Positions 12,295 through 64,000 of a stretch of 64,000 bases of DNA are shown piece by piece. The stretch is from Lytechinus pictus. Taxonomy: Eukaryota. The notes beneath the pieces are model-generated. The model was not told where the DNA came from and ran no database searches. It worked only from the letters and a program-made list of their open reading frames with translations. Made by a program: the position numbers and the translations under genes. The number at the start of each line of letters is the position of its first letter. Within the stretch, counting starts at the first letter, position 1. The stretch covers positions 13,084,001 to 13,148,000 of the forward strand of contig NC_087250.1 of assembly GCF_037042905.1 (NCBI RefSeq), written 5' to 3'.

Positions 12295-15154
12295 GTAGCA
12301 ATAGTACCAAAAGTAGTTCTAGTAGTACATGTAGTAGTAGTAGAAGTAGTAATAAAAGTAGTTGTAGTATTTGATATCAGAAGTAGTTGTAGTAGGCCTA
12401 AAGTAGTCGTAGGGGGGGGGGCAAGAATACGAAAATGTGAGGGTTTTTTTCCTTTTCAATTTAACTATAATATGGGTAAACAGCTTAGACCTCCCATTTT
12501 ATTTTCTTCATAATTTTGTTTCTTCTTTTTCGTTTCACTTATTTTTCTTTGTTTTATTTTTTCTTTTTGTGGCGCGACCCTTGGTGAAAATGTAACCCTC
12601 AAGCGTTTTATTTATTTACTTTTTTTGTAACATAACATTATAGTTAACATATTTTTATGTTTCATTTTAACCAATACTGGGTATTGATTTTAATCAACAT
12701 GCTGTACACTGTAAAAAAAATAAAGAAAACAAAAACAACGCATGCAACTGATTTGAACGGGCAAAGTTCATTCGCGGGTTAAGAATGTCAAGCTATTGTT
12801 AATCACCCATCTCAGATAATAATATAATGATAAAAATAGCTATTTATTGTTACTGTTCAGTCATCGGAAATGATTGTCATGTTAGCTTCCGATTTTCGAA
12901 TTCCTATTTGGACACCTGGAGATAAAAAAAAATATTAACTTGAAAGTTACAAATTTGGTAAAGTATACCATGAATACGTTTAGCCATACTTTCTTTTATC
13001 CTATGTTCTATTGAGAAATTAATATGTTCTAATTTAATATTATGACTGAAGTATTAGTCACGCGCATTGACCATTGTTTCTAGCCATTTTCAAATAGGCT
13101 ATAATTGATCTTATTCTATATTTTCTTAATGATTACTAAAAAATCAAAATAGAAATCAAAATGAAATACATAACCTTTAAAATCTTGATATCTTTATTCA
13201 TAAAAATTCCCATAAGATATATACATGATATATGGACATATATGTATATAGATATATATATATACATACACTACAAATGATTACAATTATAGAGCAGCAA
13301 CGTTGGCCTTTTCAATTGCACAGCAAGTCTACTATGCCCGAAAACAAAAATCTCAGAATTTCCATTTATGATGATACATGTAAACCTTCAAACTCTTGTG
13401 CCCTCCACGTTCCACTCCAAAACTCCCTCGCTATGCTAACCCTCAAATACAATAGGAAGCCTCGCTCTGTTATTTCAGGAATCTAACTATCCTTTTGTCA
13501 CGAGTGTCTGGTTTTGTTTTTGGTAAAACGACCACAAATAATCCGTAGTCTGTGTTCCAGTCCAAAATGAACCCTTATCAATCAATGTTTAGAATGATAT
13601 TTGACAACAGTTCGGCAAAACGCATCGTCATCAATATGATTTTATTATATGCATATTGTGTTCTCATTTATATAGTTGATTTGAAATGATTAATGTGATT
13701 ATCAATATCAATACAATTATCAATATCATTATCAATATTTTGCAGAATTACTATATTATTATTATCATCTTTATTATTAATGGTATTATTATCACTATCA
13801 TTATTATTATCGTCATTATTAATGTTATTAGTATCATTTCAACTACCATTATTATCATGTTAAGGAAATAGTGATAATAGTAGTATCACATGTGTAACGT
13901 TATGATCAGCATTTCTTTGAAAAAAAAGCCCTCTCATTTTACTTGATAATAGCAATCTACATTTGCTTTTGTTTAAACATTGATATATCCCTTCTTCAAG
14001 TTTCATATCAATGCATTTATTTTATTCTAATTGAAAATATCTTGGCGACGTCTTTGTATTTTAGTGAATTTTACTTTATCAACATTTCAGTGATATTCTA
14101 TGATCTTCCTAAGTGTATGTTGTAAAACATGTTCATAAGTTGTAAAACTTATTTCAATAATGCGTGAATTAATTTCCATGTACCATATATGAATAAAAGA
14201 GTGGTTTGAATTGAATCGAGAAGAACATGTGAAAAGAAAGTTATTTTGAGATTCAATAATCGCACTTCTACCAGAATTACGTAACGTCCTTATTACGTTT
14301 TACTATTCCTTTATCTCCTTTCCTCCCTTTTCTGTCTTCTGACAATCCGATTTATATGTGCCTTACATACACCCCCTACAATAGGAAACACATATTTTCA
14401 AGCACTCTCAAGTAACCTATGGATGTATTGACACGTGTTTACAGGAAATAAACTTCAATTCCTATCATGTCTTATCTTTGTACTGTAAACCAACGATTCT
14501 TACCCGCCCTTTCACACGGTAAAACAAGATCGTAATTTGAATTATAATTCCAGTGCAAAATAAGGCTAATGACGATTTTTTAGCACGTGTGAACCCAAAC
14601 TAGAACATGATTAGAATCATGAACGCTAATTACAGCTACAAATTCAATTTCTACTCCAGAGGTGAAATCCAGTTATTATAAGTTTCACTTGAATAACGGT
14701 ACGAATTTTGCGTGTGAAAAGGCTTTCGACCTCCAAAACATCTTTTCGGGGCGGAGCTAATGTGACCTTTCAAGCACTTCCGTAGATAATACAATTGTCA
14801 TGCACTCATCGTAGTTTGTATTTGTGATGTTGTGCTTTGATTGACAAGTCACCAAGGACATAAACCGCTTTCGCTCGGGAATTCAATTCAAATCACAGTT
14901 TCGAGTAAGCGTGTGAAAGTCTGATGACTCTAAAGACGAATTGTAATATCATTACAATGATGATTCAAGATTATCTTGCGAAAAGGCCTAGTCAGATGGA
15001 GGTCTGTAGTAATACAAACTTTATTTTTTTACAAAGGGTTGATGAAGGGGGTAAAGATGATGTAAATGAATAGTATGAATATAAAAAAAATAGTCATAGG
15101 GATACCTGATAATGAAGCTGAAGGAGAAGAAGAAGACGAAGAAGAAGAAGGAGA

Positions 15155-15266
15155 ATAGCAGTAGTTATAGCAGTAAAAGAAGAATAATTACAAGTAGTAG
15201 TAGCAGTAGCAGCAGCAGCAGCAGCAGCATCAGTAGTAGTAATAGTAGTAGTAGTAGAAGTAGTAA

Positions 15267-15298
<32 letters not shown>

Positions 15299-15316
15299 AT
15301 AGTAGTGGTAGTAGTG

Positions 15317-15349
<33 letters not shown>

Positions 15350-15520
15350 AAAGTAGTAGAAGTAGTAGCAGTAGTAGTAGTAGCAGTAGTAGTAGTAGTA
15401 GTAGAAGAAGTAGTAGAAGAATACTACTAAGAAGTACTACTACTATACCACTACTGCTACAACAATTATTATTATTAGTATTATTATTACTACAACTATA
15501 CTGATTCTATCACTACTAAT
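15155..15520. repeat. (AGT/AGC)n microsatellite switching to (ACT/ATT)n
   Basis: Direct inspection; explains the poly-Ser ORF. Confidence 0.9.
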
Positions 15521-16091
15521 GATAATAAAATGAGGAGGAGGACGAAGGAGAATAAGATTTTGAAGAAGGAGGATGAGGAGGAAGGGAAAATACATGTATG
15601 AATGGATACAGAATGAACCCGGAGGTAGAGGGACATAACTGTGGTAAATTATAAATGAATAATTACTTACCCAACCAGAGAAAATATCCGATCCCTTTCC
15701 AATGTCATGCAGTGTTTTAAGCAATAGCGAAGCCTGATACGTGATGATTCACACATTCAATATAACTTCGTCAAAAAAGAAAGTTAACTCAGACTTCGAC
15801 ACTAGCTGCAATCGGAAATAATCTTCAGATGGAAGTAATAAAACGTCCGTTAAAACTTAATCAAAACACTTTGAGGAGTTAAACAAACTACGTGTGCCGT
15901 TCGAAGATGTGGCACACGAGCTCCCCTATTAAAACTCATAGCGATGTTCACTAGACAAAATTATATACCTCTTTTGGCAAACATGTGTATGAGTTTGGTT
16001 TCGGAGAGGCGCGCATGCGGAGACCGCACGGGGGCGTTACCCTAAAACTAATAACCACTCGCTGAGCTCAATAGTCTATGCTGAAGACCCG

Positions 16092-18096
16092 GGGCGGTAT
16101 TCTGAAAACGTTCTTATCTTAATTTTGTTCTTATCTACGTCACGATCTCAAATTGGTATTCTGAAAACGTTCTTATCTTTTTCTTATCTTTTGTTCTTAT
16201 CTTTTTCTTATCCTGCTAAACATCCTTTGCTGAGCGCGTAAATGTATTACTCGCGCATATAATACAAAAGCGCGCTAAAAAGATAAGAACAAAATGAAGA
16301 TAAGTGGTATTCTGAAAACGTTCTTATCTTTTCTCTTTCTTATCTTTCACGATATTTATGATAATATTTAAGATAGCTAGAGGGTTATCACATCTCACGA
16401 TGTCCGCGTTCTTTCTTGCTTAAAATCGATGGCCACTATTAGTAACAAGTACCCACAAGTATTCCTCCCACCCTTTCTTTCATTCACCCTTTATTTTCCC
16501 GTCTCTTTTTTCTATCCCTTTTTTCTTTCTTTCTTTCTTTATTTATTTTCTCTTTTTCTTCCTTTCTATCTGTCTGTCTTTCTTCCTTTCTATGTGTCTG
16601 TCTTTCTTTCTTTCTTTCTTTAAGTTTATCCCTCATTTATATCTTTTGTTTTATTCTTTTGAATCTTTTAATTTCTTTACTTTTCTTTTGCTTTGTTTCA
16701 TTTATTCTTCATCTTTCTTCCATTTTTATTTTCCCTTTTCATTTTATCCCTTTCTTTCTTTTCTTGAATAAGTCTTTATTTCTGCTTTTATTCTTTCCCC
16801 TTTCTCTCTTCCTTTCCTCTTCTTTTCTTTTCATTTTTCTTTCTTCCGTCACATTTTTGTAATCTTTTTACTTCTTCCTTATGTTTTTCTTTCATTCTTT
16901 CGTCTTTATATGTGCTTTTCCTTTTTTCCCCTTTTTCTTTCTTTCTTCCCTTAATATTATTTTTTTCCCCTTATTTTTTTTTTCTTTTTTTTCTTTTTAT
17001 TTTTGGGTTCTTTTTTTTTCTTTTTTCGTTCATTCGTTTGTTCTTTCTTTCATTTTTTTTATATTTCTGCTTCCTGACACTCTTGTGTCTTATTTACTTT
17101 CTTTCTTGTGTTTTATTCTTTATTTCGCTCATTCTTTTTTCGTTCATTCTTTATTTACTCTTTCTTTACTTTCCTCTCTGTGTCTTTCTTCTATCAATTT
17201 AAAAAAACCTTTTTCTTTATTCTTTCCATTAATGTTTTTTCGTTTTCTTTTTTTATTCATTCTTCACTTTTCCTGACTTTTTATTTTCCCTTTTCGTTCC
17301 TTTTCTTTCTTTGAATTTTCCTTTCTTTCTTTTTGTCTTTCTGTAATCTTTATTTTTGCTTTAATTTTCCTTTCACTTTTTTCTCTCTCATCTTTATTTC
17401 TTTGTTTCATTTTCCTTTTCCTCTCTTTTTATTCTTTTTTATTTTGTCCTTTACTTTTTTCCTTTAAGTTTCTTTCTTTTCTTTCTTCATTTTTTCTTCC
17501 TCACTGTATCATTGATAATCGTTCTATTTTTTTTCCTTATTTTATTATTTTTTTCTTTTTTTCTTTTTAAGTTCTTTTTGCTTGCTTACTTTCGTTTACT
17601 CTTTATTTCTTTCATTATTTTTTGCTTTGTTCCTTTCATCTTTTTTTTATTCCTGCTTCATTCTGACACATTTCTGTCTACTTACTTTCTTTCTTCATAT
17701 TTTATTCTTTATTCGTACCTGCTTTATTTACTTTTTATCTTTACTTTCTTTCTTTCTTTATTTTGTGCACGTGTCTCGAAATAATAATCAGTCATTGCGT
17801 ATAAAATGCCTATTTCGCGCAGTGCGCAAGAAACAGTGCACGCGCAGCGCCCATGATATTCTCTTCACATAAGGAACGCTTCTATTGGTTAAACTAACAA
17901 TATAAAGCGCATTTTGATTGGTAATATCTTAAAAATGGGCGTGTTGAAGATAAGAAGGAGGCAGTCCTTACAGAGATAAGAACGCGTTAAGAAGATTTTC
18001 AGAATACCGATTTGCAATGATTTTAGCGTCTTCTTATCTCATTGAGATAAGAACAAAGATAAGAACAAAGATAAGAACGTTTTCAGAATACCACCC
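16092..18096. mobile_element. 2-kb non-autonomous TIR element (PIF/Harbinger-like) with a 1.3-kb polypyrimidine core
   Basis: TIRs GGGCGGTATTCTGAAAACGTTCTTATCTT / AAGATAAGAACGTTTTCAGAATACCACCC; 3-bp TSD CCG; repeated subterminal TTCTTATCT motifs; T/C-rich interior about 16460-17765. Confidence 0.8.
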
Positions 18097-47886: not shown

Positions 47887-49261
47887 TATTTATATAATCA
47901 TCATCATTGCTTTGTCAACAGTAGTAAAACTCAGTGGTGATAGTATTAATACTGGGATGACCTTTATCTTTATCATGTTTAATACAAACAATTGTATGTA
48001 CAGTAATTGCATCAAAATCAATGTAATCTTTTTTTCGTCACCATTTACTATCAGGTTCGTATAGAACACATATCATCGTCGTAGATCAAACATTTTTTTC
48101 CTGATCATTATTACGGTACGTGGACATACTCAGCAAGTAATTATATCATCCAATTATAATGACCTCAAGAATGTTGACGATACTGCATTTTTTCGTTATG
48201 TAGTATTTTCAAACAGTGACGCTGTAAAGATGATGCAATGTCGAATCTAAGTTTCAACCTCACAGCGTTGTAAGCGATGTGATACAATAAGAGCCAAAAT
48301 AGCGTTCGTTTTTGCAGACAAACAAATATGTAAAAAAAAATTTCGTCTACCAAAGTATTACAGGGGAACATGCTTTGAAAGATCAAATTTTTACTCGGTT
48401 CCCAATAATGAAAAACAAAACGAGGTAATAGCAGAATATAATTAGTTATAGTTAGGTATTGGTATTTTTATTTTAATTTGTTGTCCATATCACATTGTTA
48501 AAAAATATAAGGCAAATGTATATATGTATAATAGAAATAAAAGTCAAAAGTATAGTGAAAGAGAACCGATCAGCTTTGTTTAGTATATACATGTATAACA
48601 AATATCCATTTCCCTGTGTAAACAGTTGGATTCAAACACATGCTAGTTAAGTTGAACGGACATGAACATGTAGTATTTACGTTACAGATGCAACAATGTA
48701 AATGGTGGTCAAGAGATAAGAGGTAATGGGGAAAAAATACAAGTGTGAGAAAATTAATGAAGATATGAAATCCCCACCCTATCTTCTCTACAGTGTATCA
48801 TTCACAAACTAGTAGGCTCGACTTGGAGGAAGTCTATTTCGTATCAACCACCTGTCTGTTGATGCTACGGCGTCTGACGTTGCCATGCCAACGCAAGGAG
48901 TCATCCATAATTTCCTCTGTATTATTGAGAGATCGTGCTGGCCTGTCCTCCATGTGTCTATCTACATGGCGCCTTGACTAATAATGATCATCGGTATAAT
49001 TACGACATATCTGATGCACCCAAAAATTCGAACGAATTCATCTGGCAATGATTCCATGGTTCATTTAGTTATCACAATTTGACTTTTTTTTCTATAATTA
49101 TTCATGAAGATAGTTATGTTTATAGTTTCTGGCAACCATTTCAGTCCACCATAATGACAATTGAACATTTATGGACGAGAAAAAAAGTTGAATTATAGTA
49201 ATACTGTTCACCATAGCAGTATATTCAACAGAAACAAATAAAAATATGTACATATATATAC

Positions 49262-49306
<45 letters not shown>

Positions 49307-49860
49307 ACATATTTTATCTTTTCTATTGAATGTGCTTTATAATTCTCCTCTATATGTATTCCAATTGCCCACAACAGTATTTTTGCTTCAATACAATTGT
49401 AAGAGTGTGTAAAGCTTATAGACGTATTGATACAGAATGTGGAATTGCATAGAATACCTGTGGCCGTAAATATGTTTCCACCAATTTATCACATGATGCG
49501 GAATGTTAATGAATTTCGGTTAGATAATTAAGAGGTAGCGTAGTGTCTGCTTGGGTGTGCATGCGTAATAATCATTATTACATGAGCGATATTGGCAAAG
49601 AAAGAATCTTAAATTTTCAGTTATTTAGATTCGCATTTTTTGATAATGGTTTATCTATTTGCACTTACCTATTTCATAAAGAGATATGAACCATATCTTT
49701 ATTATAATTGTATTCATAATGTCAGAAATATTGCTATTACTTTTATTATTTTTATTACTATTATCATCATCATTAAGATTAATTATTATTAAACATTATT
49801 ATCATGATCCTTTGTATTTTTGTCTGGTTATTCATATACTAATTGTTGTTATCCCTCTCT

Positions 49861-49896
<36 letters not shown>

Positions 49897-50682
49897 ATTT
49901 CATCATTATTACAAGCACTATTGTAGCACCAATATTCTCGTAAAATTACACCGGCCATTGTCATCTTTATCACTCTTATATTCCCTGCTATTGTAATTTT
50001 CATCATAATTTCCCTTTCCTTCTATCGCATTTGTCTATTTCAGATTGGTTTTTCATCGCCTCTATTCTGATGCTGAATTCCGCTGTTCGGTCCCACATGT
50101 TGAATTTGCCGTCATAAAGCACACAGACCCTAACGTTACCGACCCGAATAAAGATCCACCTGCTATCCCTTGGCATCTACAATAAGGCATTCTCCATGTG
50201 CGACCATTCGCGATCGATTGGCGCACTAACGGCAGGACTCTGACTCAACGTTTATCAATCATGCACTACTTGTCGTTTTCACCGCGCTGGTAAGTCGTGC
50301 GACACCCCGCTTTATTTAGAGAAGCAACAGCTGACTGGAGAACGTTATTGATTTCATTTCGTGTTAAAAATTTGAAGTCACATTTATTGGATAAATAATA
50401 ACGGTCTATTCAGCGCATTATCAGCAAAGATTACTTAGTGACTGCTTTACCAAACGTGCTGTCTGCAGGCCATTCTCGTAAAGGGATTCGTTTATCGGGG
50501 AACCTGATGCGACTTTTTCGCCAATAGATATTTCGAAACTATATATCACCATGTAGAAAACTAAAACCATTATGGTGTTTCTTAACCTGTTGTAAAGCTT
50601 TTCTGAATGTAACCGTAAATGTTATTAGTTACTACCGACGTGCCTTAATATATAAAGATTTAAAATACGATACCAAATTGCC

Positions 50683-52369
50683 ATGGATCAATTGCTAAAG
50701 TTATCCAGAGGACGTTTGAAGTTCTTTGGTTTACTCATTGTAGCAGCGGTGGCTATGCCTGCTTCAGGTGTTGACGTTGGGAAAGGAGCTGTTGAAGTAT
50801 CGCTACCCGCTGTTACCGATGAATTGCCAGAGCCCGAGGGCGTCCTAGATGGAGATTGCATGAACATCTCTTTGAAGAACAGCGATTGGAGCTGGAATGG
50901 CGTCGATGGACAACAGGCAGAAGGAGAAACGGCACTGCTGCTCAGGAGACTGATCAAAAGACTAAACAATGCGACTCAACGAATCCACGATGACAATCCC
51001 AATCTGAATTCGACACAGTTCATAAATGTTGTAGCCAGTCGCTCTTCCCTGTTGTTGTTGAAGATCAAATCGTTCGCCCGTGTCTTTGGCCAGATAAACT
51101 CCTTCTATGGATACACTTGCCGGAACGGAAAGGATCTCCTGCGACATGCCCTCAACAGAAACATAACCGCAGATGAATCTGAAGATTTCGATGACGAGCT
51201 AGCTGAAGAGATAGATGCTGCTATCCATGAGGTTATGGGTGATGATAATGGGGATGCAGAAGAAGGCGGTGAGGCGGAGGAAGAGGAAAGTGGTGGGGAA
51301 GAAACGGAGCCAGGTCGTGGTCCAGGTCCGAAACCTAACAGCAAATCACTTGGAATGCAGAACAAGACACTTGCCATACGAAAAAGAAACAAAATTGCAG
51401 TCAGGATGTTCATCAAGAAAGCTCTCGTTGCTTTGTTCCTGTCACAACATCGGTTCAAAGGGTCTAGGATGTCTCTGCAAGAAGTTATCCAGCGACTTGG
51501 AGAAGATGGGAGACTCGGAAGCATAGACCAGAGCAAGCCGAGACACGTAGGTGGAAGGAATGAAACCGCGGATAGCACGGAGGTAGCTGGGGATGATGAC
51601 GGCTTGACAGGCATAATGGGTGAAGACTCAGACGAGATTATGGATATCTTCGAATCCGTAGAATGGTTTGATGACGAGGGCGACAACTCCGACGTTGAAG
51701 ATGAGGAAGAGGTCCGCAGGAAATTCACACTTGAAGGATACCTGCTCAAGCTTATGTCTGTGTATGTCAACAAGAGTGCTTCGTGCGCGAGACGGGTCAC
51801 CAGGTTCATCAGGCAGAGAGCCAAGCACCTACCGAATAAGACAGACGATGAAGAGGAATTCACTGATCTCTGGAAAGATTACATGAAATTGGTTCGTCAG
51901 ATGAATGTTTCGCGGCACCAGCAGGCCAGCGATGGTTCACTGCGTAACGGAGGGGAGAACTCTTCGAGCGAAGTTGAAGTGCAAACTGGGAATCCCCTGC
52001 AGGAGGATGGACCTCTTGTCTCCAGGATTCGTAACATCACGCAACGACTCGTTGAAGGTAAATGGAGCGGAAAGGGGGGCATCGAGGGTCGCTTCTATGT
52101 GGTTGTATTGAAAATGGCTCAAGTGATCAATAACTGGGGAAAGGCAGGCTTCTTGACCAATGGAACATACTTCGACGCTAATTGTTCGCCTGGTCGATCG
52201 TCGAGTGAGGGTGCCACGACAACTTGTCGCATATGTCCCACAGATGCCTCCATTGGGAACCTTCGAATGCTTCTCTCTGAGCTAGATGACACCATCGAAG
52301 AAGTCTATGATGATATCAGGGACAGAGTGGATAGACTGACTAAAGGAACACCAAAAGAAAAACTGACAG
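50683..52369 (+). CDS. Large uncharacterised secreted glycoprotein, coding exon 1 (signal peptide plus repeat domain 1)
   Basis: GCCATGG Kozak; signal MDQLLKLSRGRLKFFGLLIVAAVAMPASG; GC-rich ORF until donor ACAG|GTAGGA, after which composition becomes intronic; phase 1. Confidence 0.85.
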
Positions 52370-52926
52370 GTAGGACTAAATCTCATCATTTATCATTCCA
52401 ATGCATCAGTACATTTGCCAATTATCTCTCTCTCAAACTCATTAGGCTATCTACTTTTTGTAAAAAAAACCAAATACATGTAAATATACGCATAACCCTA
52501 CGGGAAGGTAAAACTAAAATCTATAACAACAAAATTATTTTCAACTTTTTTGGTAACTTCATGTTATAAAACATGACCAATATGCGTATTATTGTTTTAA
52601 AATATTGCCTAATAGATGTTTTACTCTAAGGATACAACATATTGTTCATGTACATATATGTAATTAGCTTAATTGGCGCAAATGCTGTGGATCATCATCA
52701 TCATTGTCGACTTTCATATTCATTCCATATTATATGTGGCCCGTTACCCCCAATGCCAACGATAAGTCGCCAAGGAGGTTTATCTGTACATAAACTAGTC
52801 CAAATAGTAACTTGGTGTTTATGAACTAAAATTTCGAAATCATTCTCGTCTCAAAGAGCAATTTTGAAACTGAATAAAATACGATCAACGGGAGTTTCTT
52901 TGACACCTCATTTTCCAGAGTTCCTG

Positions 52927-53099
52927 GTAGGTGTTTCATAAAACTGTTCGTAAGTATAAAGAGCGACTTCAAGAACGACCGGTGTCCCTTCTTGCGGTAA
53001 GCGGTATATTGAATTAGCGATGGTTTGACGCGTAAGAAAGGATCACCAGTCGTTCTTAAAGTCGCTCTTAACTTACGACCTGCTTTATGAAACGGCCGC
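52927..53099. mobile_element. Harbinger-like MITE
   Basis: GTTTCATAAAACTGTTCGTAAG / CTTACGACCTGCTTTATGAAAC; TSD CTG. Confidence 0.7.
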
Positions 53100-54534
53100 C
53101 TGGATTAGCACAGAGATTGTACAATATGCACGAATCATGCTCAAGTGAACCTCAGACTTCAAACCTTGTTATTTCCATATTCCCTTAAAGCTCTCACTCA
53201 ATAATTATATTCAACGTTTAGTCAAGAATCATAGTTGGTTATTGTTGATCGAGTTAGAAAATTTACATATCCTGGTAAAACTTAGGATGTGATTCATCAA
53301 ACTCAATAACAATTACAAAATACATTTTGGGCAACTTTGACCTACTGTTGGTTTATGGGGGTGCATGTCACATATGGTTTAATTTGTTTCAACCGCATAA
53401 CACGTTTTATATTGTTCGATCAATTTCTACTTCCGATTCTATTCTCGCATTATTCAATTTGTATATTTCATTATCATCACACATCCATATCACAAGTCTG
53501 CAAAACCATTTTGATTTTTTCATTCATTTTTTTTTTATTTTACCGAATATTTTAACCATCGCTTCATTCTTTAGTATTTTTGTTTTGTTTTGGGGGATGA
53601 TTTCAACCATGATTTTTCTTTTACTTAAAGCTTCACGTTCCATTATCTGCACGATGAAAAAATATTATGTCATGCTTACATGCAAAATGCGCATTCTTGA
53701 ATATTGGCATATTTCATGGAGTAGTTAGTTCTCACCCCATATTAGCTCACATTTTCAACTTAATGTTCTTAAAAGGGGGATTCAAACCAAATCAGCATTT
53801 AAAATTATATCTAAAGAAAACGACATTTGTTACCACTTCTAAGCCCTGTGACGCTTGTGCATTGCTGCCAAGATAATAGTGCATTGCTGCCCTGATGATA
53901 AATAGAAAGGAAAAGGAAATTTTATGAGACAAAAATGCTAGCAGACAATCATGAAGTTACCTTTACCCAAATTTATTGAGGCACGTAAGAGGCTAACAAA
54001 TCGGTGATTTGTTTGAATAAGAGTGGTTTTGAACTGGCCGAAATGTAAGTAATTATATATAAACATCGACACTTCCACTTTGCACGTGGGGGCAATCAGA
54101 CAAACACATGCGCGATCCGTGTGACATTTTTACGCGGGAAGCTCCCCCGCTTATTATGGGTGCTTGAGAGATCGTGACCGTCTCTATGTAAAAATCAAAT
54201 TTCAATTATTTCACTAAAAAGAGACACCAGATTTTGCGAGTGAAATGTGAAATAACAAAGTCGCATGGCTGTTTATATAAAACTTGTATAAATGGAATAT
54301 TTTTTATTGACAAGTAATGTTTTATGACACTTGTTCCACATCTACCACTAATCTCCCTATTTTTTAGATTTGCATGAACACTTTGTTAGTTCTCCTAAGT
54401 TACTTAAAAGGTAAAGCATTTCAAGCCGTCAATTCACACTCTAAATCATAAGTCACAATAAATCAAAAATGTAATTTTTCATCATTGTTATTTCTGTAAT
54501 GTATTTGTGTTTTTGCTATAATGCTCAATTCCAG

Positions 54535-54690
54535 GTCCCGTAACAAAAAAAGTTAGCGATTAATCGGTAATTTGAAAGAACAATTCTGATTGGTTCCCAG
54601 TCAGTCTACTGAGCAGACTGCGAATGCCATGATGATCGTGATAGGCCGTTTCATTTAGCGATTAATCGCTAACCTTTAGGTTACGGGGCC
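54535..54690. mobile_element. Harbinger-like MITE
   Basis: CCCGTAAC...GTTAGCGATTAATCG / CGATTAATCGCTAAC...GTTACGGG. Confidence 0.7.
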
Positions 54691-54874
54691 CTGATCATGA
54701 AACATTTTATCTTCCTTTGGAGCTTTCTTCCAATTTGAATTTGGAACAAGAATCGAACATTTCACCAATTCACCTTGTCGCTTTCATACATTGACATGTT
54801 GAGAGGCAGTATTTTGTTTGGTAGTATCTCCTGTGCTTTATTTGTTTGATCGTTTCGGTATTATTTTGCCTTAA

Positions 54875-55252
54875 AGTGATTGGTTACCATTGGTTTGACT
54901 TTAAAAAAATCTGAGCTAGAAGGTCACACTTGTCACCTGTGTCTGTGATATGTTACAAAAATGAAGCCCAGAAAAAATTGCGTTCGAAAATAATTATTTA
55001 GTGCTTCAAAAATTGAAATATAAAGTGACCGAAAACACCATCTTAATTTCATCCCATACACTTATGTGTACTATTTAGGCGTCTATAAGACGCCTATTTA
55101 CAAAATCGGGGTTTGCCTTGTAGTTTTAGCTTTTCATTCTCAATAATGCTTGTTTTCAGGGTTTATTAGTTCTAATACATGCACTTGTACACATGTTTCA
55201 TCTTGGTTTGAGAATTTTTTAAATCGGCTGCTCACAAAGTTAAACAATACCT
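54875..55252 (-). mobile_element. TTAA-flanked MITE, inverted near-identical copy of 36936-37317
   Basis: Reverse-complement match along the whole length; TTAA flanks. Confidence 0.85.
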
Positions 55253-56443
55253 TTAAGGGGATACTGGTTGCCAGAAATTTTCATCATAACGTAATGACAA
55301 ACGAAATTGACAAATTACCTGCCACTCTAAAGCTTAGAATGCTTTCTTTTATCTAGTTCAACATAGATGACACTGTTTTATCATGCATGAGAGAGCAAGA
55401 TACATTGAATAAAAAGCATAAGAAAGATACCATTTGGATCGTATCTGAATAAAAAAGAAAAAATGTTCTTGTCTAAAAAGTCAACAATTATCTGTTCTTG
55501 AATTTATTACTCCATTAATCGAAATTACGAAAGATTAGCAAACTTTTCTTCAATTTAAAAGATAATTCTTGCATTATCCTAATAAAGCGAAACTTTCGGG
55601 GTTTTTTTCAATAAATATTCCTTCATTACTGGTGTAGATCCGTGACGTCATCCTATTCAAGTGGGGGTGATGAAAATTTAGATAATTCCCCTTGAACAAT
55701 AGATTCACAACACAAATCGACACCCATGTCCTTGATCATGTTAATATTCAAGAACATAGATTATAGAATGCCCTTTATGTCAAAGAACAGATAAGAAGTC
55801 TTTGTCGAAAATTGGTTATTCAAAACAGTAGTTTCATCCTGATCTCTGTACCTGCGTCATCAGCTCCGAAATTAGTGTCGAAACTGCTGTTCCGGTTCAC
55901 CGTTTTCCACCAAGACCTCCATGATGTGTTTTTTGTAATATTGACATATTGACCGGCATTTCAGGACATTTTACTATGTTTTTAACAGTGCACTTGCGAA
56001 AAATTCCAAATGAATTTTTGGAGGAACGGCTGGAATTTCCCGACCATGGATGTTACCAAAAGTATCTCGTCGACAATTTTAAGTCGTGGTATTACTAGCA
56101 TATCCTCCAGAAAAGGACAGATGAAAGAGGCCATAGACCTTCAAATGATCTTGCTCGTTCACTGAATCACGTCTATTTTCACATTCTGTTGAAATGCAGA
56201 CAACGCCCATATGCATGCAACGTCAAAGTCGCAAAGCAAACTCCCTTGGAGGCTATACGAATACGCGCAAATGGAGAAGCGCCGGCTGGAGATTAACGTA
56301 CTTTAGCAAAGGCGCTGACGTCTATGGTGGCGGTCTGATCGGATGCCGTCGATGCACAAGGTCTACATGCAGGTTTCCCAAATTTGTAAAACTGCAATAA
56401 AAACAGAAATTATAGGTTCGATTCGGAAGTAACAATCTGTTAA

Positions 56444-57028
56444 AGGAGAATGAAACCCTTGAAACTAGCTGAATCAATATCAAAGAGAAAAATCAAAGAA
56501 ACATATTGTTGAAAGTTTGAGGAAGATTGAATGAATAATAAGAAAGTTATGAGCATTTGAATATTGAGATCACTAGTGCCATGTAGATCCTCCCATCGAC
56601 AATGCGACCAAGATCTGTGATATCACACACGTACAACTCCCTCATTACTTTAGTACTTATTTCACTTATATTCTCATTTTTTATAGAGTCTATCACAAGG
56701 TTAGGTGTTTTCTTTATGAGATGACAAGTACAGAGGTTTCACAACATTATATCATTGATGAATCGTTTGTCATATGATTAGAATGAGCAAAAAGAGATGT
56801 TTGGGGGTATATTTTCAGTGTCCGAATGGGAGAAGTTGTACGTGTGTGACATCACAGATCTTGGTCGCATTGCCAATGGGAGGATCTCCATAGCATTAGT
56901 GATCTCGACATTCAAATGCTCATAACTCTTCTATTGCTAGTCCTATTTTACTCAAAGTTTTGTTGATCTTATTCTTTGATTTTTCTGCTTTCACAAAAGC
57001 TAACTTGCTCCAAGAGTTTCATTCTCCT
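56444..57028. mobile_element. TTAA-flanked long-TIR MITE (Kolobok-like)
   Basis: TTAA|AGGAGAATGAAAC ... GTTTCATTCTCCT|TTAA; ~200-bp inverted arms (ACCAAGATCTGTGAT / ATCACAGATCTTGGT). Confidence 0.8.
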
Positions 57029-57505
57029 TTAAGGTCTTGCCACGTTGTCCCGAATCTTCAAACTGCCTTTGCAAATCACAACTTTGCCTGATCAGAATTC
57101 TGCATCATTATTCTATAAAAGCTTCTTCAATGCAGTCACTATTTATGCAGCCCTCGCATACACTTTCAGTTCATTCCACTTAGTCCTGTTTCATGTTAAG
57201 GAAGTACGGAGGGTACGTATTGTTTTACATAAGTTTTTTATTAATAGTATGTCGTAAGATTTGGTGTTAATTTAATTAGAACACGATGTATAACTTTTAC
57301 GACATCGTATCACGGATAAAAAATGAGGTATCTGTTGGCATATTTTCATGGCTCACTTGAGACCGCTGTTCAACAGTGGCATCAAGCATAATCGAATTGC
57401 CAGTGGAAGAGGAAGACCTTTTTAGAGTATTCTTGATCTCAACATTCATGTACTTATTGTTTACAGATTTTACACAATTTTTCGTTGGTCTTATTTGAGT
57501 ATTAT

Positions 57506-57782
57506 GGAGCGTTGTGGCCCAGTGGATTAGTCTTCGGACTTTGAAACAGAGGGTCGTGGGTTCGAATCCCAGCCATGGCGTAATTTCCTTCAGCAAGAAA
57601 CTGATCCACAATGTGCTGCACTCAACCCAGGTGGGGTAAATGGGTACCGGTAGGAAGTAATTCCTTAAAAAGCTGTGTGCGCTATGAACGCCTAGCTTAG
57701 CCGGGTAATATAGGAGCGCCTTGAGCACCTAACAAGGTGGATATGTGCGCAATATAAATACCCTATTATTATTATTATTATT
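57506..57782 (+). mobile_element. tRNA-derived SINE (tail type B)
   Basis: A-box TGGCCCAGTGG, B-box GGTTCGAATCC, same body as 20245; tail GAGCGCCTTGAGCAC...GTGCGCAATATAAAT + (TTA)n. Confidence 0.88.
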
Positions 57783-58361
57783 CATTTATTTTCTTGTTGT
57801 TTTGCTTTCAAACAAGCTTACTTGTTTAAGGGTTTCCTCCTTCTTAAATCAAATATTTTGACAGAGTATGCAATGCCTTGTTCATCACGAAGCCCTCTGT
57901 GGCATTTCCTTAAATCGTTAAGTTGATAAGAGTGGTGATGATCTTTCGAATGTCACTCTATCATTTTCTTGTTTTTTTGTACTACACATTCATTTCGATC
58001 ATTTCAATAACATTTTTTCTGACCCAGCATTTTCGTAAAATTGGTATTTTTCATTAAATCTTCGACGCACGTTTTACTATCTATTTGCGTTTTCATAAAC
58101 ACTTCAAATTTGCATTACTTTTACCTACGCTGCTACGCATTATTCGACTATTCTAACTTAAACAATTCTCACTTTACTTTTTATCTGGAAATTAGCACGC
58201 GTACCTTTTCCTTCGTTAACACAACACTTGTTTACGCTCGCATCTAATCAATCTTTTTCAGTTTCATTGCATAGAATATTAACATAAAAATGTGTTTTTA
58301 GTCCCGAATTGTCACATTGTTCAGCGGTCAGATACATTGGAATATTCCTAATTTTTAACAG

Positions 58362-60583
58362 GGATGTTCACAAAACCACGGCGACTTCTCAATACGCACG
58401 GCGCCGACTGCTTCGCCCTAACCTTCGCAACAAAAGACTGGCGTCTGTTTCAGTATGAGAGCCTCAGTGGAAAAACGAAGGATGGTGGAGACGAAGGTAA
58501 TAGTGATGAGGGCGAAACTGATTTGGAAGAGGATGATGACGAGGAAAACATTGGTGATGTCGCAGACGAAAACGATCAGGGAGAGGCAAATGCGACGGCA
58601 AATGTAGAAAGCGAAGTGGACCAGAAAGGGACAGATAGAAAAGATGGTCACCAGGCCCGTAGGTCACCTTTTCCACGTGCAAGGAATATTCTTAACAGCC
58701 AAAGTAGACAGATTCGGATGATCACTAGGGATATTACTATTGGAAGGATTGTGCGGCTTATTGTGAGGCAATCTGCAGTTCGCATGCTAAAGGTTCTGAC
58801 CTTTGAAAGAGTTTTTAAAATGATTCACAGATCAAACAGTTTTATTTGTACGAATGCAGAGCCTCTCATGAGGGAAGCACTAGGGCCTAACGCAACATAT
58901 CTAGAATTGTCAAACATGTCGGCAGTTCTAAAGGCTATCAATCGAACGATAGCCGAAGTTCGTAAGGAAAGTACCCCAATTTCGAGCTCCAGTTATAGCA
59001 AATCTGGATCCGTGTCATGGTTAACCGACACTGGTCGGTATCAAGACCGTGATCGGGAAGGGTCAGAACCATCAGGTTCACTAGAAGATCCCAGGCCAGA
59101 GTCAAGAGAAGGGTCTCCTTCATCGGGTTCACGAGAACGCATCGGACCAGAGTCAAGAGAAGGGTCACGCCAAAGTTATGAGAGTGGATCGAGCGATGAC
59201 GGCTACAAAGCAAAGAATCCAATGAAGACACTAGAGGTGGAGGAAAGACAAAGTCTTTTGCAACGATTCAGGCAAGCAGCAATAATTGGATTATTCTCTG
59301 CGCCTCGGAGAATAAATAACCAAAGACTGTCTCTTTCCGAGTATGTAGCGATGTTGGCTTCTTTTTGTCAACATCAGAGACGTGGACCAAACTCAGTGTT
59401 CCGTGACTTAGACAAATGGTTACAAGAATATAGGGAGAATGTGAATGCACGTAACTATACCATTAACAAACACAACAAATCACTTACATTCTTAAAGCCA
59501 GGAGTACGTCCTCGAATTATCACATCAAGGCGAGAAAGGTATCGTCATGGCCAAAGAATGGAGATTATTACTTCATCCTCTTTCAAGTTTTGTTTGCCTG
59601 ACGATATTCATGGCTACTGCGGTAACAGGGAGGAACGCTACGGTAAGGTGATTGATAGATTTATAGGAATGTCTAGCAGTGCCAACACATCAGTTGTAAA
59701 GGAAGTAGACAGAGATAAACACGAGAAGGCTAAGGCAGATGAGACGAAGATGGAACATTTTACCATTGAAGAATTTCTTTTAGAGCTGATGATATCCATG
59801 TCCACGAAGACTTCTTCCTGTGCGAGTAGAATTAATCGTGCCTTGCGATTACATGGAAAGCCTGTGTTTGGTGTTCCCAGAATGAAAAAATACAATGGTA
59901 CAAGAGCTAATCCGGAACCTCGTAGTGCAAAGGGCATTGCTGTAACGCGGACGCCCGGGAAGAAATCGGACACACCTGGATCTGAACATTTTGTCTACAA
60001 ACATAACAAGAGTTCGAAGATGTATAAGGAGTACTTGGAGAGCATGAAATCTTGCCGAGGATCCGACTTTATCGAACGTCGGCTGGAAGGCCACACATGG
60101 GGTGAAACCTACCAAATAAGCTTGTTCTACTTCAAGGTCTTAATGAAAATTTCAGAGATGATAGACATATGGGGACGTTCCATGCGGGAAGGAGGAGAAA
60201 CCTTATACAATACATCATGCCAACAAAACGAAGACGGCGACGTGTTAACAACATGTAAGGTATGTGTTAGAGAGTCCGCAGTCGGTACTTTCGAAGATCT
60301 TGTTGGCACTATCGACGACATCCTTAGATCAACCAAGGAGACTTTAGCAACGGGTGTCAACGACTGGAAACAGCTCGGGGTATCTAAAAATAATGGAACC
60401 TTTTGGCAAAATGGTGATAAAGAAAGAAAGGGTCAAAAGGGTGACGATGACGAAAGGAAAGGAGCTGAAGGGAAAGGGACAAGCGAAGAAACTGATGGAA
60501 TGCCAGGCAGAAGACCTGATGGCAACCCCGGAAGAAACCCAGGAGGAAGATCAGATCACAGAACAGGTAAATACTATTCATAA
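58362..60583 (+). CDS. Large uncharacterised secreted glycoprotein, coding exon 2 (repeat domain 2); ends at stop 60583 or splices at donor 60566
   Basis: Acceptor TTTTAACAG|GG is phase 1 and joins exon 1 in frame (G+GG = Gly, then MFTKP...); colinear homology to exon 1; candidate phase-1 donor ACAG|GTAAAT at 60566/60567. Confidence 0.85.
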
Positions 60584-61031
60584 ACAAACAAACAAAACAT
60601 CAACCACAAGAGGATATTGATAAAAGATAGCGATGAATAAAAAAAGTGATATATATATATCAAGGGACAGGTCTCGCGTATATCAAAAGAAACACTCCAT
60701 TTCCCTTTATAATGGAAGGGATGGAGCTGAAATTATCAGTTTTCCTTAACGATTCATAAATCGTCACTTTAGCATATTCTAATTTAAAACATGGAAAATG
60801 GACGAATGGTCCCAAGTTAGAGATAAGTTATCAAAGTCCAGACGAAGGGTGCCTTATTGTATCACAGATCAGCGCAAAGTCAACGTAAAAAAAGTTTACA
60901 AGAGGATTTATTTGTTGTCGTAATTAAAATGCCGAAATCCGAATCAAAGGGATAAATAAAAGTTGTACTCACCTTACATGTACGTAGAGGAGTAGCATCC
61001 ATTAATTGTGACATAATTAGTCGTTCCATAA

Positions 61032-61480
61032 TTTTTGTCTCGCCTACATAGCGAGACTATAGGCGCCGCTTTTCCGACGGCGGCGGCGGTGTCAACAGTA
61101 AATCTTAACCGAAGGTTAAGTTTTTGAAATTACATCATAACTTAGCATGTAATTTATATAGACCTAGTTCATGAAACTTAGGCTTGGCGGTTAATAAGTA
61201 TTACTGAATATCCTGGCAAATTTTCACGTTACGTGCCTAAGGTCAAAGGTCATTTAGATTTAATGAACTTAGACCATGTTGGGGTAATCAACATCGAAAT
61301 CTTAACCTAAGGTCACGTTTTTGAAATGTCGTCTTAACTTAAAAAGCAAATAGACCTAGTTCATGAAACTTGAAAGAAAGGGTATTAAAGTACTACTGAA
61401 AATCCTGTACGATTTTTTAGGTTATACGACTAACGTCAAAGGTCATATAGGGTCATTGAACTTTGGCCGTGTTTAGCAAA
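61032..61480 (+). mobile_element. Non-autonomous element with 5' hairpin, (GGC)n and ~200-bp tandem core repeats (Helentron-associated HINE / Tsp-like)
   Basis: TTTTTGTCTCGC..GCGAGAC hairpin, CGGCGGCGGCGG, two copies of GACCTAGTTCATGAAACTT...GTCAAAGGTCAT. Confidence 0.55.
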
Positions 61481-61970
61481 TTTCGATGGCACGGGTTTTA
61501 ACATGCACAAAAGGAATATAAGATGATATTAGTTTAAACAAAATAGGGATGGACGGACGTGGGGCGGGCGGGCATTGGAAAAAAAAAAGAAGTTCACAAA
61601 GAAGATAAAAAGAGGAGGAAGGATAAAAAAAAATTTACCTGCTGTTTTGAAAACAAAATTATGTCAAAATCTACACAAAAGTAGATTTTCAATTTTTTGT
61701 TTCATCGAGATACTGATGAACAAAAAGAATCACTACAATTTTATAAGGGTTACCTTAAAATATCACAATTTAATTTTCTGCCAAGATCGGTGCTTATGTA
61801 CCATAAATTTAGGCACATTTTGTGGGGAGATCACAAATACCCAAGGAGACAGCATATGCAGGACTTTCATGTGGTTTTACATGAAATTTCATAGATTCTA
61901 GGGTGACACGACATGTGCTTCAGACCTGCAACATTTGCTCCGGTCTTGATTAGAGTTAGGATTGTAATAG

Positions 61971-62168
61971 GGCAATTCCATAAAATATGTACGTCCGATC
62001 CCTTTATATGTGGGACCTTCATGAATTTTCTGTATCCGATTTGTTGTCCTTATAGCAGTTCGTAATGTTCTCAAAGGACCATGACTTTGTCAGTTTATGC
62101 AGTGAAGTAAGACTTGAGAAAAATGGGGGTCGGACGTACGAAAAGGTTGATTATTTCATGGAATTGCC
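61971..62168. mobile_element. MITE with 6-bp TSD nested in another repeat
   Basis: TIRs GGCAATTCCAT / ATGGAATTGCC; TSD TAATAG (61965-61970, 62169-62174); host resembles 40443-40620. Confidence 0.75.
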
Positions 62169-62525
62169 TAATAGAGTTTTTGGTCCAGAATAGTGCAAAG
62201 ATAAGGATTATGGTTTATTAGCTTTGCTGGTTAAGTTTCAATGTCCATCGGAGCAATTGTCATGGAACTGATTCTACAACACAGAAACATCGGGCCCGTT
62301 GCAGAGAAAAAATGTGATCAATCGCAACTCAAAGCATCAGTCCCAACTTGTATTTCAACCAATGAAACATTCGTAATAAGGAAATAAATTTCATTTATTC
62401 ATCTATCGGACATCCCGTATACCAGGGACCCCGGAATAATTTTTCTTAAGTTTTAATACAGATGGGGGTGCTGGATTGTTAAAAGCAAAAAACACAAACA
62501 AACAACAACACCCCCCCCCCCCAAA

Positions 62526-62557
<32 letters not shown>

Positions 62558-62891
62558 TAAAGATATTCGGCTCAAATCTATACCTGTTTAGCATTCCACT
62601 CTAATTTTCAGGGGTTCTTCAGATTACGGTCTACAACATACACATTACCCGCATATAAAAAGTATTCGGATGTTCCTCGGCAACTCAAGACCTCCTCTTC
62701 CAAGTGCCGTGTGTTATAACTGCAAAATATTCTGAGAAATCCAATTTGATGTACAGGATAATAATTTAAAATTATATTTTCTCTTGTTCGCATTATCTGA
62801 TTTTTAAGTGTACATGGTTCTAACAGCGTCTACCTACCTTGACAGTAAAGAGCATTATGGCATCTTCCTTGTGAACGATCGGGAACATTAA

Positions 62892-63471
62892 AGGACAAGT
62901 CCACCCCAACAAAAAATTCATTTGAATAAGAAGAGAAAAGTCCAACAAGCATAACACTGAAAATTTCATCAAAATCGGATGTAAAATAAGAAAATTATGA
63001 CATTTTAAAATTTCGCTTAATTTCACAAAACAGTTATATGCACATCCTGGCTGGTATGCGAATGAGGGGACTATGACGTCATCCACTCATTATTTCTTTT
63101 GTATTGTATTATATGAAATATTCTCATTTTCTCCTCATTGTCAAGTGATACAACAATTAATTCCTCCCTGAAGATGTGGAATTAGCATTGTTTAATACTA
63201 TATGGTTCAGTCAAGTTGGTCCTTATTGTCAAATCTATAAAAAGTGAAATATTGTATAATTCAAACAATGAAAAACAAAAGAAATAGTGAGTGATGTACA
63301 CCATCGACCGACTCACCTGGTTGTGCATATCACTGTTTTGTGAAAAATAAGCGAAACTTTAAAATGTCATAACTTTCTTATTTTACATCCGATTTTGATG
63401 GAATTTTCAGTGTTATGCTAGTTTGATTGTTCTCTATTCAAGTCAGCATTTTCCTGGGGTGGACTTGACCT
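62892..63471 (+). mobile_element. Full-length TTAA-flanked MITE (Kolobok-like)
   Basis: TTAA|AGGACAAGTCCACCCC ... GGGGTGGACTTGACCT|TTAA; second copy at 1-361. Confidence 0.85.
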
Positions 63472-64000
63472 TTAACTAGTACAAGCAAGGTTTTTTTTTC
63501 ATCCCATCGAACCCCCCCCCCCCCCCCACACACAAAAAAAGATAAATATAGAATGCGAGATAGAGAGGGGACAGAGACTAAGAACTAGAGACAGGAAGAG
63601 CGAGAAAGAATGGAAAGGATGTTAGGAAAGACATACATTTCTGTAGGTTCATTGAAATGAGAGTAAATGAAACAGTATCAACAAACGCATGTGAATATGA
63701 TTATATGTTTATATACATGTATATATGGTTATTGACTTTTCCGTTTCGCCTCCATGGCCTATTGTTTATTGGAACAATGGTTTTTTCCAAGCACTTCCCC
63801 TCGCATAGCTCTAAAATGATGGTTGTCAATATTTTTAATATTCTCTTTATCTTGATCATGTAGATGATGAAGAATGCTTTGTAATTAAGGCATTTTAAGG
63901 CATAGCGACGAGTACTTGCCGAAGGTTAGCGCGTGCTGCACGCTCTTTTGTTACAAAAAGGCAAACAATCATTAGAATGATAACTCTGCGACCTCATTGC

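Follow-up and report, generated by a model that had tools for sequence, protein, structure and literature searches.

The window, a 64,000-nucleotide stretch of the sea urchin Lytechinus pictus genome, carries two long open reading frames on its plus strand, one from the ATG at 50683 to a stop at 52567-52569 (628 aa) and one from the ATG at 58364 to a stop at 60581-60583 (739 aa). The original prediction held that the two splice in frame, in phase 1, into a single protein of about 1300 aa or more, and direct reading of the sequence agrees with this. The donor after 52369 reads ACAG/GTAGGACT and the acceptor CCTAATTTTTAACAG/GG, so that exon B starts at 58362; both sites are canonical (GT/AG), and the junction codon, G+GG, encodes Gly. 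Scripted translation of 50683-52369 joined to 58362-60583 yields 1302 aa with no internal stops, and a script comparison found it identical at 1302/1302 residues to P0003, i.e., RefSeq XP_063957013.1, titled "uncharacterized protein LOC135154531 [Lytechinus pictus]". XP entries in RefSeq are predicted models, and this one gives the same protein without a domain, name or function: the gene model is already known as 'uncharacterized', the protein itself is undescribed.

The features of the locus are collected in Table 1. X1 and X20 are transcript-like contig sets of two public runs, whose status as RNA is a guess. Since an acceptor, TTTGTCTATTTCAG/ATTGGT, precedes the 5' UTR part at 50044, at least one further 5' exon would lie upstream of 49900; the X1 and X20 contigs on 50044-50602 continue 144 and 443 letters beyond it, off the stretch. 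The GC content of the intron (0.356) is lower than that of the coding exons (0.487 and 0.447). We propose a single gene, LOC135154531, of three exons or more. Its 5' end would comprise one or several exons upstream of 49900; next would come an exon at 50044-52369 that carries the 5' UTR, signal peptide and module A, then the 6-kb repeat-filled intron, and then an exon from 58362 to about 62400 that carries module B with a short tail, and the 3' UTR. A phase-1 donor-like site, ACAG/GTAAAT, also closes the module B tail.

Table 1. Features of the two-module gene, in positions of the window
Feature	Position	Strand	Evidence and remarks
5' UTR of first large exon	50044..50682	+	X1/X20 contigs on 50044-50602; no listed piece over 50603-50675
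Signal peptide, 29 aa, predicted cleavage ASG/VDVG	50683..50769	+	Hydropathy, translation
Exon A coding: signal peptide and module A, acidic, pI 4.94	50683..52369	+	Ends at phase-1 donor ACAG/GTAGGA
Intron, 5992 bases, repeat-filled	52370..58361	+	X1/X20 depth zero or near zero in unique bins
Exon B coding: module B, basic, pI 8.98, Gly/Arg/Pro-rich tail and stop	58362..60583	+	Sequence, X20 contig
Probable 3' UTR, to AATAAA at 62383-62388	60584..62388	+	X20 contig pieces; 3' end position inferred from AATAAA
Module A six-cysteine codon span	50857..52236	+	Codons at 50857, 51118, 51784, 52183, 52225, 52234
Module B six-cysteine codon span	58409..60265	+	Codons at 58409, 58847, 59819, 60218, 60254, 60263

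The two exons encode colinear homologues, as originally proposed. Modules A and B align by BLASTP with E 3e-17 at 21 % identity over 580 columns, and profile-profile comparison (hhalign) gives a probability of 98.9 % (E 1.1e-17, 446 columns). The five matching blocks quoted earlier were all found in the translations, and the six cysteines claimed to be conserved (residues 59, 146, 368, 501, 515 and 518 in A; 16, 162, 486, 619, 631 and 634 in B; codons checked) are invariant in 6/6 aligned sequences. The last two cysteines of module A (codons 52225 and 52234) form a CxxC motif placed in a predicted beta-hairpin. Two colinear modules, each on one exon and both joined in phase 1, would trace to an old tandem duplication of a module-coding exon. 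The predicted phase-1 exon duplication stands, though with two copies only: no others turned up in the 812-Mb genome, nor a decayed third copy within 84 kb, and the duplication is old, with no ongoing expansion.

The module belongs to no recognised family, and here too the searches agree with the earlier view. In Pfam, neither half matches a family at the gathering cut-off (hmmscan); the one row, GntR, reaches 11.7 bits where the cut-off is 27, in 1/6 family members scanned, and the C-terminal pieces of A and B hit no family at E up to 5. Profile searches of PDB sequences returned no significant match (the top hit among 177,635 distinct sequences has E 0.63 and 11.7 bits), and the ESM Atlas gave none. 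Among 1,835,955,588 representative proteins three matched, one of them the query protein itself, leaving two relatives. The A-type relatives (P0004, P0006 and P0007; Logan assemblies) are 556-559 aa long and 58 % identical, and P0004 has a signal peptide. The B-type relative, P0005, from an ENA contig, is 1129 aa long and 28 % identical to B, lacks a signal peptide and carries a similar Gly/Arg/Pro tail; it matches the B half with E 2e-17 versus 0.049 for the A half. All four, probably ORF calls on single contigs, comprise one module each, with the block order and six cysteines of the L. pictus protein. The tree separates A from B with support of 100/100 and branch lengths of 1.0-1.6 changes per site, and the duplication is older than the divergence from one or more other species. 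As far as searched, the family would be tiny and confined to a few related sequences in these databases.

Several sequence features point to secretion. The signal peptide claimed for the joined protein, MDQLLKLSRGRLKFFGLLIVAAVAMPASG, is the sole hydrophobic stretch in 1302 aa: windows with a Kyte-Doolittle mean >1.4 start only at residues 10-17, and the n/h/c regions were read from the sequence. P0004 keeps the P-A-x-G/VDVG context around the cleavage site. N-glycosylation sequons (N-x-S/T) number 24, versus 9.4 +/- 2.8 in shuffled sequences, with 0/2000 shuffles reaching 24; three sites occupy the same alignment place in 3/4 lineages, two of them directly before invariant cysteines. S-x-[D/E] motifs are not enriched (16 versus 18.0 +/- 3.7). 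With a signal peptide, no membrane anchor and an excess of sequons, the product is probably a secreted glycoprotein: the 1302-aa chain would enter the secretory pathway, be heavily N-glycosylated and, for want of a membrane anchor, be released outside the cell.

The fold is less accessible. AlphaFold2, run on 6-row alignments, reached a mean pLDDT of 37.4 on 562 aa and 42.1 on 223 aa; a Foldseek search of the PDB with the 223-aa model returned no match at E <= 0.001, a blank that does not count given the poor model (pLDDT 42.1). The predicted module core comprises about ten helices and a beta-hairpin with the CxxC motif, interrupted by fast-changing charged loops. The 'mostly helical' description draws solely on the secondary structure of these two low-confidence models, and 'disulfide-bonded' on the invariance of the cysteines in a secretory protein; the six would probably form three disulfides that hold the core together.

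Transcript-like contigs cover both exons at depth 3-68, compared with 0-0.54 in the unique intron bins (53396-54269 and 57766-58202); repeat bins are thousands-fold deep. A 790-letter contig, which lies whole on 51580-52369, ends exactly at the donor in both X1 and X20. An X20 contig of 2746 letters places letters 27-2746 on 58358-61077, hence letter 31 on 58362, so exactly 30 letters stand ahead of exon B, the first 26 of them unplaced and the last four (ACAG) equal to the end of exon A. Logan contigs, built from a 31-mer graph, overlap by k-1 = 30 letters (PMC12424806); the 30-letter overhang equals this overlap. Downstream, X20 pieces on 58358-61077, 61326-61997 and 62122-62345 have similar depths (8.3, 6.5 and 4.2), with repeat between them. 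The 52369>58362 joint is not among the 15 joints listed out of 63, and an exact look-up of a junction-spanning ORF found 0/3 sequences. Neither exon drew a read from two raw RNA-seq runs with the same species label, of which ~6 % each was read, suggesting that expression is restricted or low.

These data fit one spliced gene over two, with indirect support for the exon A-exon B joint. Two separate genes, the outcome against which the original prediction had been set, were not what emerged: the joined model is XP_063957013.1, and contigs end at the predicted junction. We put the probability of the overall explanation, one spliced gene for a secreted two-module glycoprotein that arose by an old tandem exon duplication, at about three in four. 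It is very unlikely that RefSeq's pipeline, and the original prediction with it, fused two tandem paralogous genes, the second of which would start from a small signal-peptide exon somewhere in the 6-kb interval. Such a short exon could hide in the repeat-rich bins, exon depths differ up to tenfold in X1, and the joint is seen through contig ends, not junction letters; however, the exon A contig stops exactly at 52369, the 30 foreign letters of the exon B contig end in ACAG, and the joined frame is intact and equal to the RefSeq model. Moreover, exon B has no signal peptide of its own and its frame opens just 4 codons upstream of the acceptor, yet it keeps secretory-type features.

A question within the single-gene model is which form predominates. 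Contig word depth, a poor measure of expression, is higher over exon A than over exon B in both sets (40-66 versus 3-7 in X1; 14-18 versus 8.3 in X20), which suggests that in X1, where exon A is ~10x deeper, the two-module form accounts for a small part of the product and the one-module form may predominate. That the main product is a module A-only protein, with the 1302-aa form minor or conditional, is compatible with the overall explanation and would change which protein matters; we consider it possible but doubtful. The exon A contig break exactly at the donor in both runs implies, in a 31-mer graph (PMC12424806), more than one continuation; the frame stays open beyond the donor to 52567-52569, and an AATAAA lies at 52873-52878. 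P0004, P0006 and P0007 terminate six residues beyond the point that corresponds to the junction, and the alignment of P0004 to the stretch reaches 52380, inside the intron, but these may be ORF calls on genomic contigs that say little about isoforms. Simple intron read-through, in turn, fails to explain a break exactly after 52369, as the intron and exon B both begin with G. Module B, with its six cysteines, its open frame and a B-type relative in another species, is under selection. In the proposed single gene, a second continuation from the 52369 donor is probable, and one- and two-module forms are both probably made, in sample-dependent proportions.

As to function, we tentatively favour, at somewhat below even odds, an extracellular coat or matrix glycoprotein, in which variable charged loops would project from stable helical cores and serve in ionic or partner binding. 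Next, but unlikely, comes species-specific recognition, between gametes or in immunity. There the loops that vary would make up the surface for recognition, and diversifying selection would lie behind the fast divergence: divergence is very high (58 % identity to A-type relatives, 28 % between B and P0005, the long tree branches), a 51-base tandem duplication falls within a module B loop, and expression is absent from the portion of the two RNA runs that was read. In exon A, 6/8 listed differences between X1 contigs and the stretch change a residue and 2/8 are silent, a ratio near the neutral expectation, these eight being the best supported, with at least 113 more. The divergence, for its part, is not a rate, and relaxed constraint by itself lets disordered loops diverge quickly. 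A granule cargo of the regulated secretory pathway, granin-like or prohormone-type and cleaved into peptides at dibasic sites, would account for the acidic stretches, 21 dibasic pairs and signal peptide, but is highly improbable: what is conserved is the long helical blocks and the cysteines rather than short dibasic-flanked peptides, Pfam gave no family match, and heavy sequon enrichment is atypical of peptide precursors. A bolder and distinctly improbable proposal is that the module represents a novel extracellular fold found in sea urchins alone, with disulfide-locked helices and a CxxC hairpin carrying fast-evolving charged loops for species-specific recognition (gametes or immunity). Regulated splicing would then produce either an acidic protein of one module or a two-module form, in which the basic module B could pair with the acidic A.

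The family lacks a description and a Pfam model, its structure is neither solved nor predictable, and it counts two relatives among 1.84 billion representative proteins, which makes it a blank spot. For now, the protein stands with the many uncharacterised, lineage-restricted secreted proteins of animal genomes, and the present analysis adds to its description module boundaries, invariant cysteines, conserved sequons, the duplication age and probable isoforms. Should the module prove to be a novel extracellular fold, or a recognition protein that evolves fast, it would be added to the few echinoid-specific secreted proteins whose role is known; a knock-out would be feasible in L. pictus, which is used for genetics.

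Among known systems, Wnt chains occupy 6/50 listed Foldseek rows for the C-terminal model (ranks 1, 5, 42, 43, 44 and 48), none of them significant (E 0.37-1.6, probability <=0.20, TM <=0.16, model pLDDT 42), and there is no Wnt row in Pfam. The N-terminal domain of Wnt is likewise helical with disulfide-bonded hairpins, but Wnt has 22-24 cysteines as against six per sea-urchin module. The sperm proteins IZUMO1, SPACA6 and TMEM95 have a helical bundle followed by a CXXC hinge, an Ig-like domain and a membrane anchor. The order of extracellular helices followed by a disulfide-stabilised CxxC beta-hairpin, here predicted, is similar, and may serve only as a lead: the sea-urchin protein lacks the Ig-like domain and the anchor, its module is several times larger, Pfam scans at E up to 1 returned no Izumo row and no second hydrophobic segment is present. 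Bindin and SpTransformer (185/333) are secreted sea-urchin proteins that evolve fast and have their coding sequence on few large exons. They showed no sequence similarity in the searches run and lack helical blocks with six cysteines, but share with the present protein a signal peptide, a restricted taxonomic range, large coding exons and variable stretches of charged or repetitive sequence.

Translation from the first ATGs of the two long open frames (see the table) reproduces the ORF sizes of the original prediction, 628 and 739 residues, and both sites of the in-frame splice that it placed between them are present. The donor of the first exon (exon A, encoding module A), read in the first ORF as ACAG/GTAGGACT, cuts after 52369; the acceptor of the second (exon B, encoding module B), read ahead of the second ORF as CCTAATTTTTAACAG/GG, sets the exon start at 58362; and the junction is in phase 1, exon A contributing the first base of a Gly codon and exon B the other two. 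A script translation of 50683-52369 joined to 58362-60583 yields 1302 residues and no internal stops. The two coding stretches have GC contents of 0.487 and 0.447, compared to 0.356 in the 5992-base interval separating them. A search limited to longer proteins returned a single protein, XP_063957013.1 (P0003; "uncharacterized protein LOC135154531 [Lytechinus pictus]"), whose sequence equals the joined translation; the observation of a spliced two-module gene is thus confirmed, and the splice is that of the RefSeq model.

Coordinates of open frames and repeats (L003, flanking DNA past the window end; other positions are those of the window)
Feature	Coordinates	Strand	Details
Stop-to-stop ORF, 637 codons	50656-52569	+	628 residues from first ATG
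Stop-to-stop ORF, 743 codons	58352-60583	+	739 residues from first ATG
Tandem duplication, 51 bases	59057-59158	+	73 % identity; within Ser/Arg-rich loop of module B
Inverted repeat, 153-base arms	56486-56638 / 56834-56986		82 % complementary
Open frame, 349 codons	3614-4663	-	signal peptide, one membrane-spanning helix, Arg/Ser/His-rich tail
Open frame, 612 codons	L003 817-2655	+	signal peptide; 0.8-2.7 kb past window end

The RefSeq model is a prediction that carries neither a domain nor a function. LOC135154531 was not mentioned in a literature text search, the two supplementary files of PMC12516323 that were searched held 0 occurrences, and a literature search on secreted sea-urchin proteins of restricted taxonomic range found nothing relevant; none of three sequences (module A, module B and a junction-spanning part of P0003) has an exact match in a sequence collection. 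The acceptor ahead of exon A, TTTGTCTATTTCAG/ATTGGT, is rated good, and contigs on 50044-50602 continue past it by 144 and 443 letters upstream, so at least one further 5′ exon lies upstream. At the other end, a donor-like ACAG/GTAAAT (60563-60572, plus strand, phase 1) precedes the exon B stop by five codons. It has ACAG/GTA in common with the exon A donor and is not homologous to it in position, the NGTF codons being without GT; a contig runs through it unbroken (set X20, see below), and it may be a relic no longer in use, or else serve as an alternative donor for some downstream exon.

Transcript evidence for 49900-63000 comes from two Logan contig sets from separate studies, X1 and X20, taken as RNA by guess. 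Together they cover 50044-52369 and 58358-61077, plus pieces as far as 62345, at depths of 3-68; their depth is 0 to 0.54 in the unique intron bins (53396-54269 and 57766-58202), while the remaining intron bins show thousands-fold depth and are therefore repeats. Both sets behave like transcript assemblies. In each, a 790-letter contig lies entirely on 51580-52369 and terminates exactly at the donor. A 2746-letter contig of X20 is placed on 58358-61077 from letter 27 on, so that letter 31 corresponds to 58362, and the exon B contig of X1 leaves the same 26 letters unplaced. Logan contigs are described as constructed from 31-mers (PMC12424806), and at 51393-51422 and 51580-51609 adjacent contigs share 30 letters; the successor to the exon A contig is expected to have an overhang of exactly this length. 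The final four overhang letters sit on the intron ACAG, which also matches the last letters of exon A. The junction 52369/58362 is thus well supported, if indirectly, by contig ends and overhang; the joint is not among the 15 joints listed of 63. In about 6 % of each of two raw RNA-seq runs with the same species label (X21 and X22), 0 reads fell on exon A and exon B, so expression is not ubiquitous. In X20 the 217-base stretch 51393-51609 is present in two contig versions, one identical to the window and the other with 9 differences: an allele bubble within exon A that diverges by ~4 % and takes in a conserved helix block together with part of a variable loop, at module A residues ~238-309.

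The two exons are unequally represented: contig depth in X1 is 40-66 over exon A vs. 3-7 over exon B, with a smaller gap in X20 (14-18 vs. 8.3). Since the contig is broken exactly after 52369, a second continuation must exist in the graph; plain intron read-through does not account for the break, because the intron and exon B both start with G. The exon A frame remains open as far as a stop at 52567-52569, and AATAAA is present at 52873. A one-module product therefore probably exists, and it may be the commoner form in some samples.

The two modules are colinear homologues, as originally proposed: BLASTP of one half against the other gives a single colinear alignment (E 3e-17), and hhalign of the A-type against the B-type profile reaches a probability of 98.9 % (E 1.1e-17, 446 columns). 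The six conserved cysteines noted at the outset (module A positions C59, C146, C368, C501, C515 and C518) are invariant across all six available sequences, and the predicted variable loops separate the conserved blocks, being acidic in A and Ser/Arg-rich in B. The blocks at least 30 % identical to both B-type sequences cluster at module A residues 50-166, 238-303, 341-382 and 505-528. The tandem duplication in module B encodes two 17-residue copies, EGSEPSGSLEDPRPESR / EGSPSSGSRERIGPESR, indicating that loops expand via local duplication.

When 1,835,955,588 representative proteins were scored with a profile built from both halves, three passed the cut-off of E <= 0.001: P0003, P0004 (556 aa, E 3e-147) and P0005 (1129 aa, E 6.5e-15). 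The A-type relatives are P0004 and two members of its cluster, P0006 and P0007; they come from Logan assemblies, carry a signal peptide and show 58 % identity. P0004 ends six residues beyond the junction-equivalent point, and its alignment to the window reaches 52380, within the intron, as would be seen with a transcript left unspliced or with an ORF called from genomic DNA. The B-type relative is P0005, encoded on a 29-kb ENA contig, with E 2e-17 against the B half and just 0.049 against the A half. A maximum-likelihood tree sets A and the A-type sequences apart from B and P0005 with support of 100/100 and long branches; the duplication had therefore taken place before L. pictus and the species of P0005 diverged. 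Three queries of the L. pictus genome (812-Mb assembly) found just two copies, A and B, and tblastn of the window and 10 kb on either side found no third or decayed copy (other HSPs, E >= 0.8).

The original prediction recognised no known family, and the searches agree. All six sequences and the C-terminal pieces stay below the Pfam thresholds, the best E in a sequence profile search of the PDB is 0.63, and the ESM Atlas gave no usable match to whole module A or to residues 440-556. Word-indexed searches found no match for module B at near lengths and just P0003 itself for the six-row alignment; both were limited to the 8000 candidates with the most words in common, missed relatives known otherwise and are uninformative. 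AlphaFold2 models from the same alignment are below usable confidence (mean pLDDT 37.4 over module A; 42.1 over its C-terminal 223 residues, 340-562) and agree just on secondary structure: long helices and a hairpin, predicted at residues 497-503 and 512-519, that would bear three of the cysteines. Foldseek with the 340-562 model found no match in the PDB at E <= 0.001; a likeness to Wnt, in 6 of the 50 listed rows (probability <=0.20, TM <=0.16), is noise-level.

The sole hydrophobic segment of the 1302-residue protein is its N-terminal signal peptide. N-glycosylation sequons (N-x-S/T) number 24, a count that 0 of 2000 shuffles attain (9.4 +/- 2.8); three sequon places are common to three of four lineages, and two directly precede invariant cysteines. 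Module A is acidic and module B basic (pI 4.94 vs. 8.98). Exon B has no signal peptide, and its frame opens just four codons ahead of the acceptor, yet it keeps secretory features, which speaks for its dependence on exon A. P0003 is predicted to be a secreted, N-glycosylated, disulfide-bearing protein.

As to function, an extracellular coat or matrix glycoprotein, in which disulfide-locked helical cores would bear variable charged loops, is our tentative reading, at a probability of about 0.4. The main alternative, species-specific recognition, is about half as probable, and a granin-like cargo is unlikely. An acidic phosphoprotein is unsupported, since secretory-kinase-type S-x-[D/E] motifs are not enriched in P0003. 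Of the exon A differences by which X1 departs from the window, eight are listed and six of these alter the residue; this small, filtered set is compatible with relaxed or diversifying selection. The interpretation first offered is supported, with the qualifications given above, and the gene model could already be found in RefSeq. The new element is an account of a two-module family, restricted to its lineage, that had not been described before; families of this sort are well known from animal genomes.

Acidic repeats rich in sequons, of the (T/S)GDQ / NQT type, occur by the dozen in the 612-codon frame just past the window end, which has no Pfam match; it is a second, adjoining secreted repeat protein of lineage type. 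The 349-codon minus-strand frame has just sub-threshold Pfam rows. Contig depth runs to tens of thousands over the repeats of the intronic interval 56455-57765, and X21/X22 read depth reaches ~1400, on one strand, over 57329-57765. An ORF at 57297-57728 (minus strand) includes a GFEPTT-type stretch, which we take to be of the kind found in tRNA-derived SINEs; Rfam and ARAGORN tRNA scans of 49000-64000 found nothing. Strand asymmetry is extreme over the 2 kb of 16001-18000 (GC skew -0.36, AT skew -0.51), a pyrimidine-rich low-complexity tract closely preceded by a serine-codon microsatellite ORF at 15100-15504.
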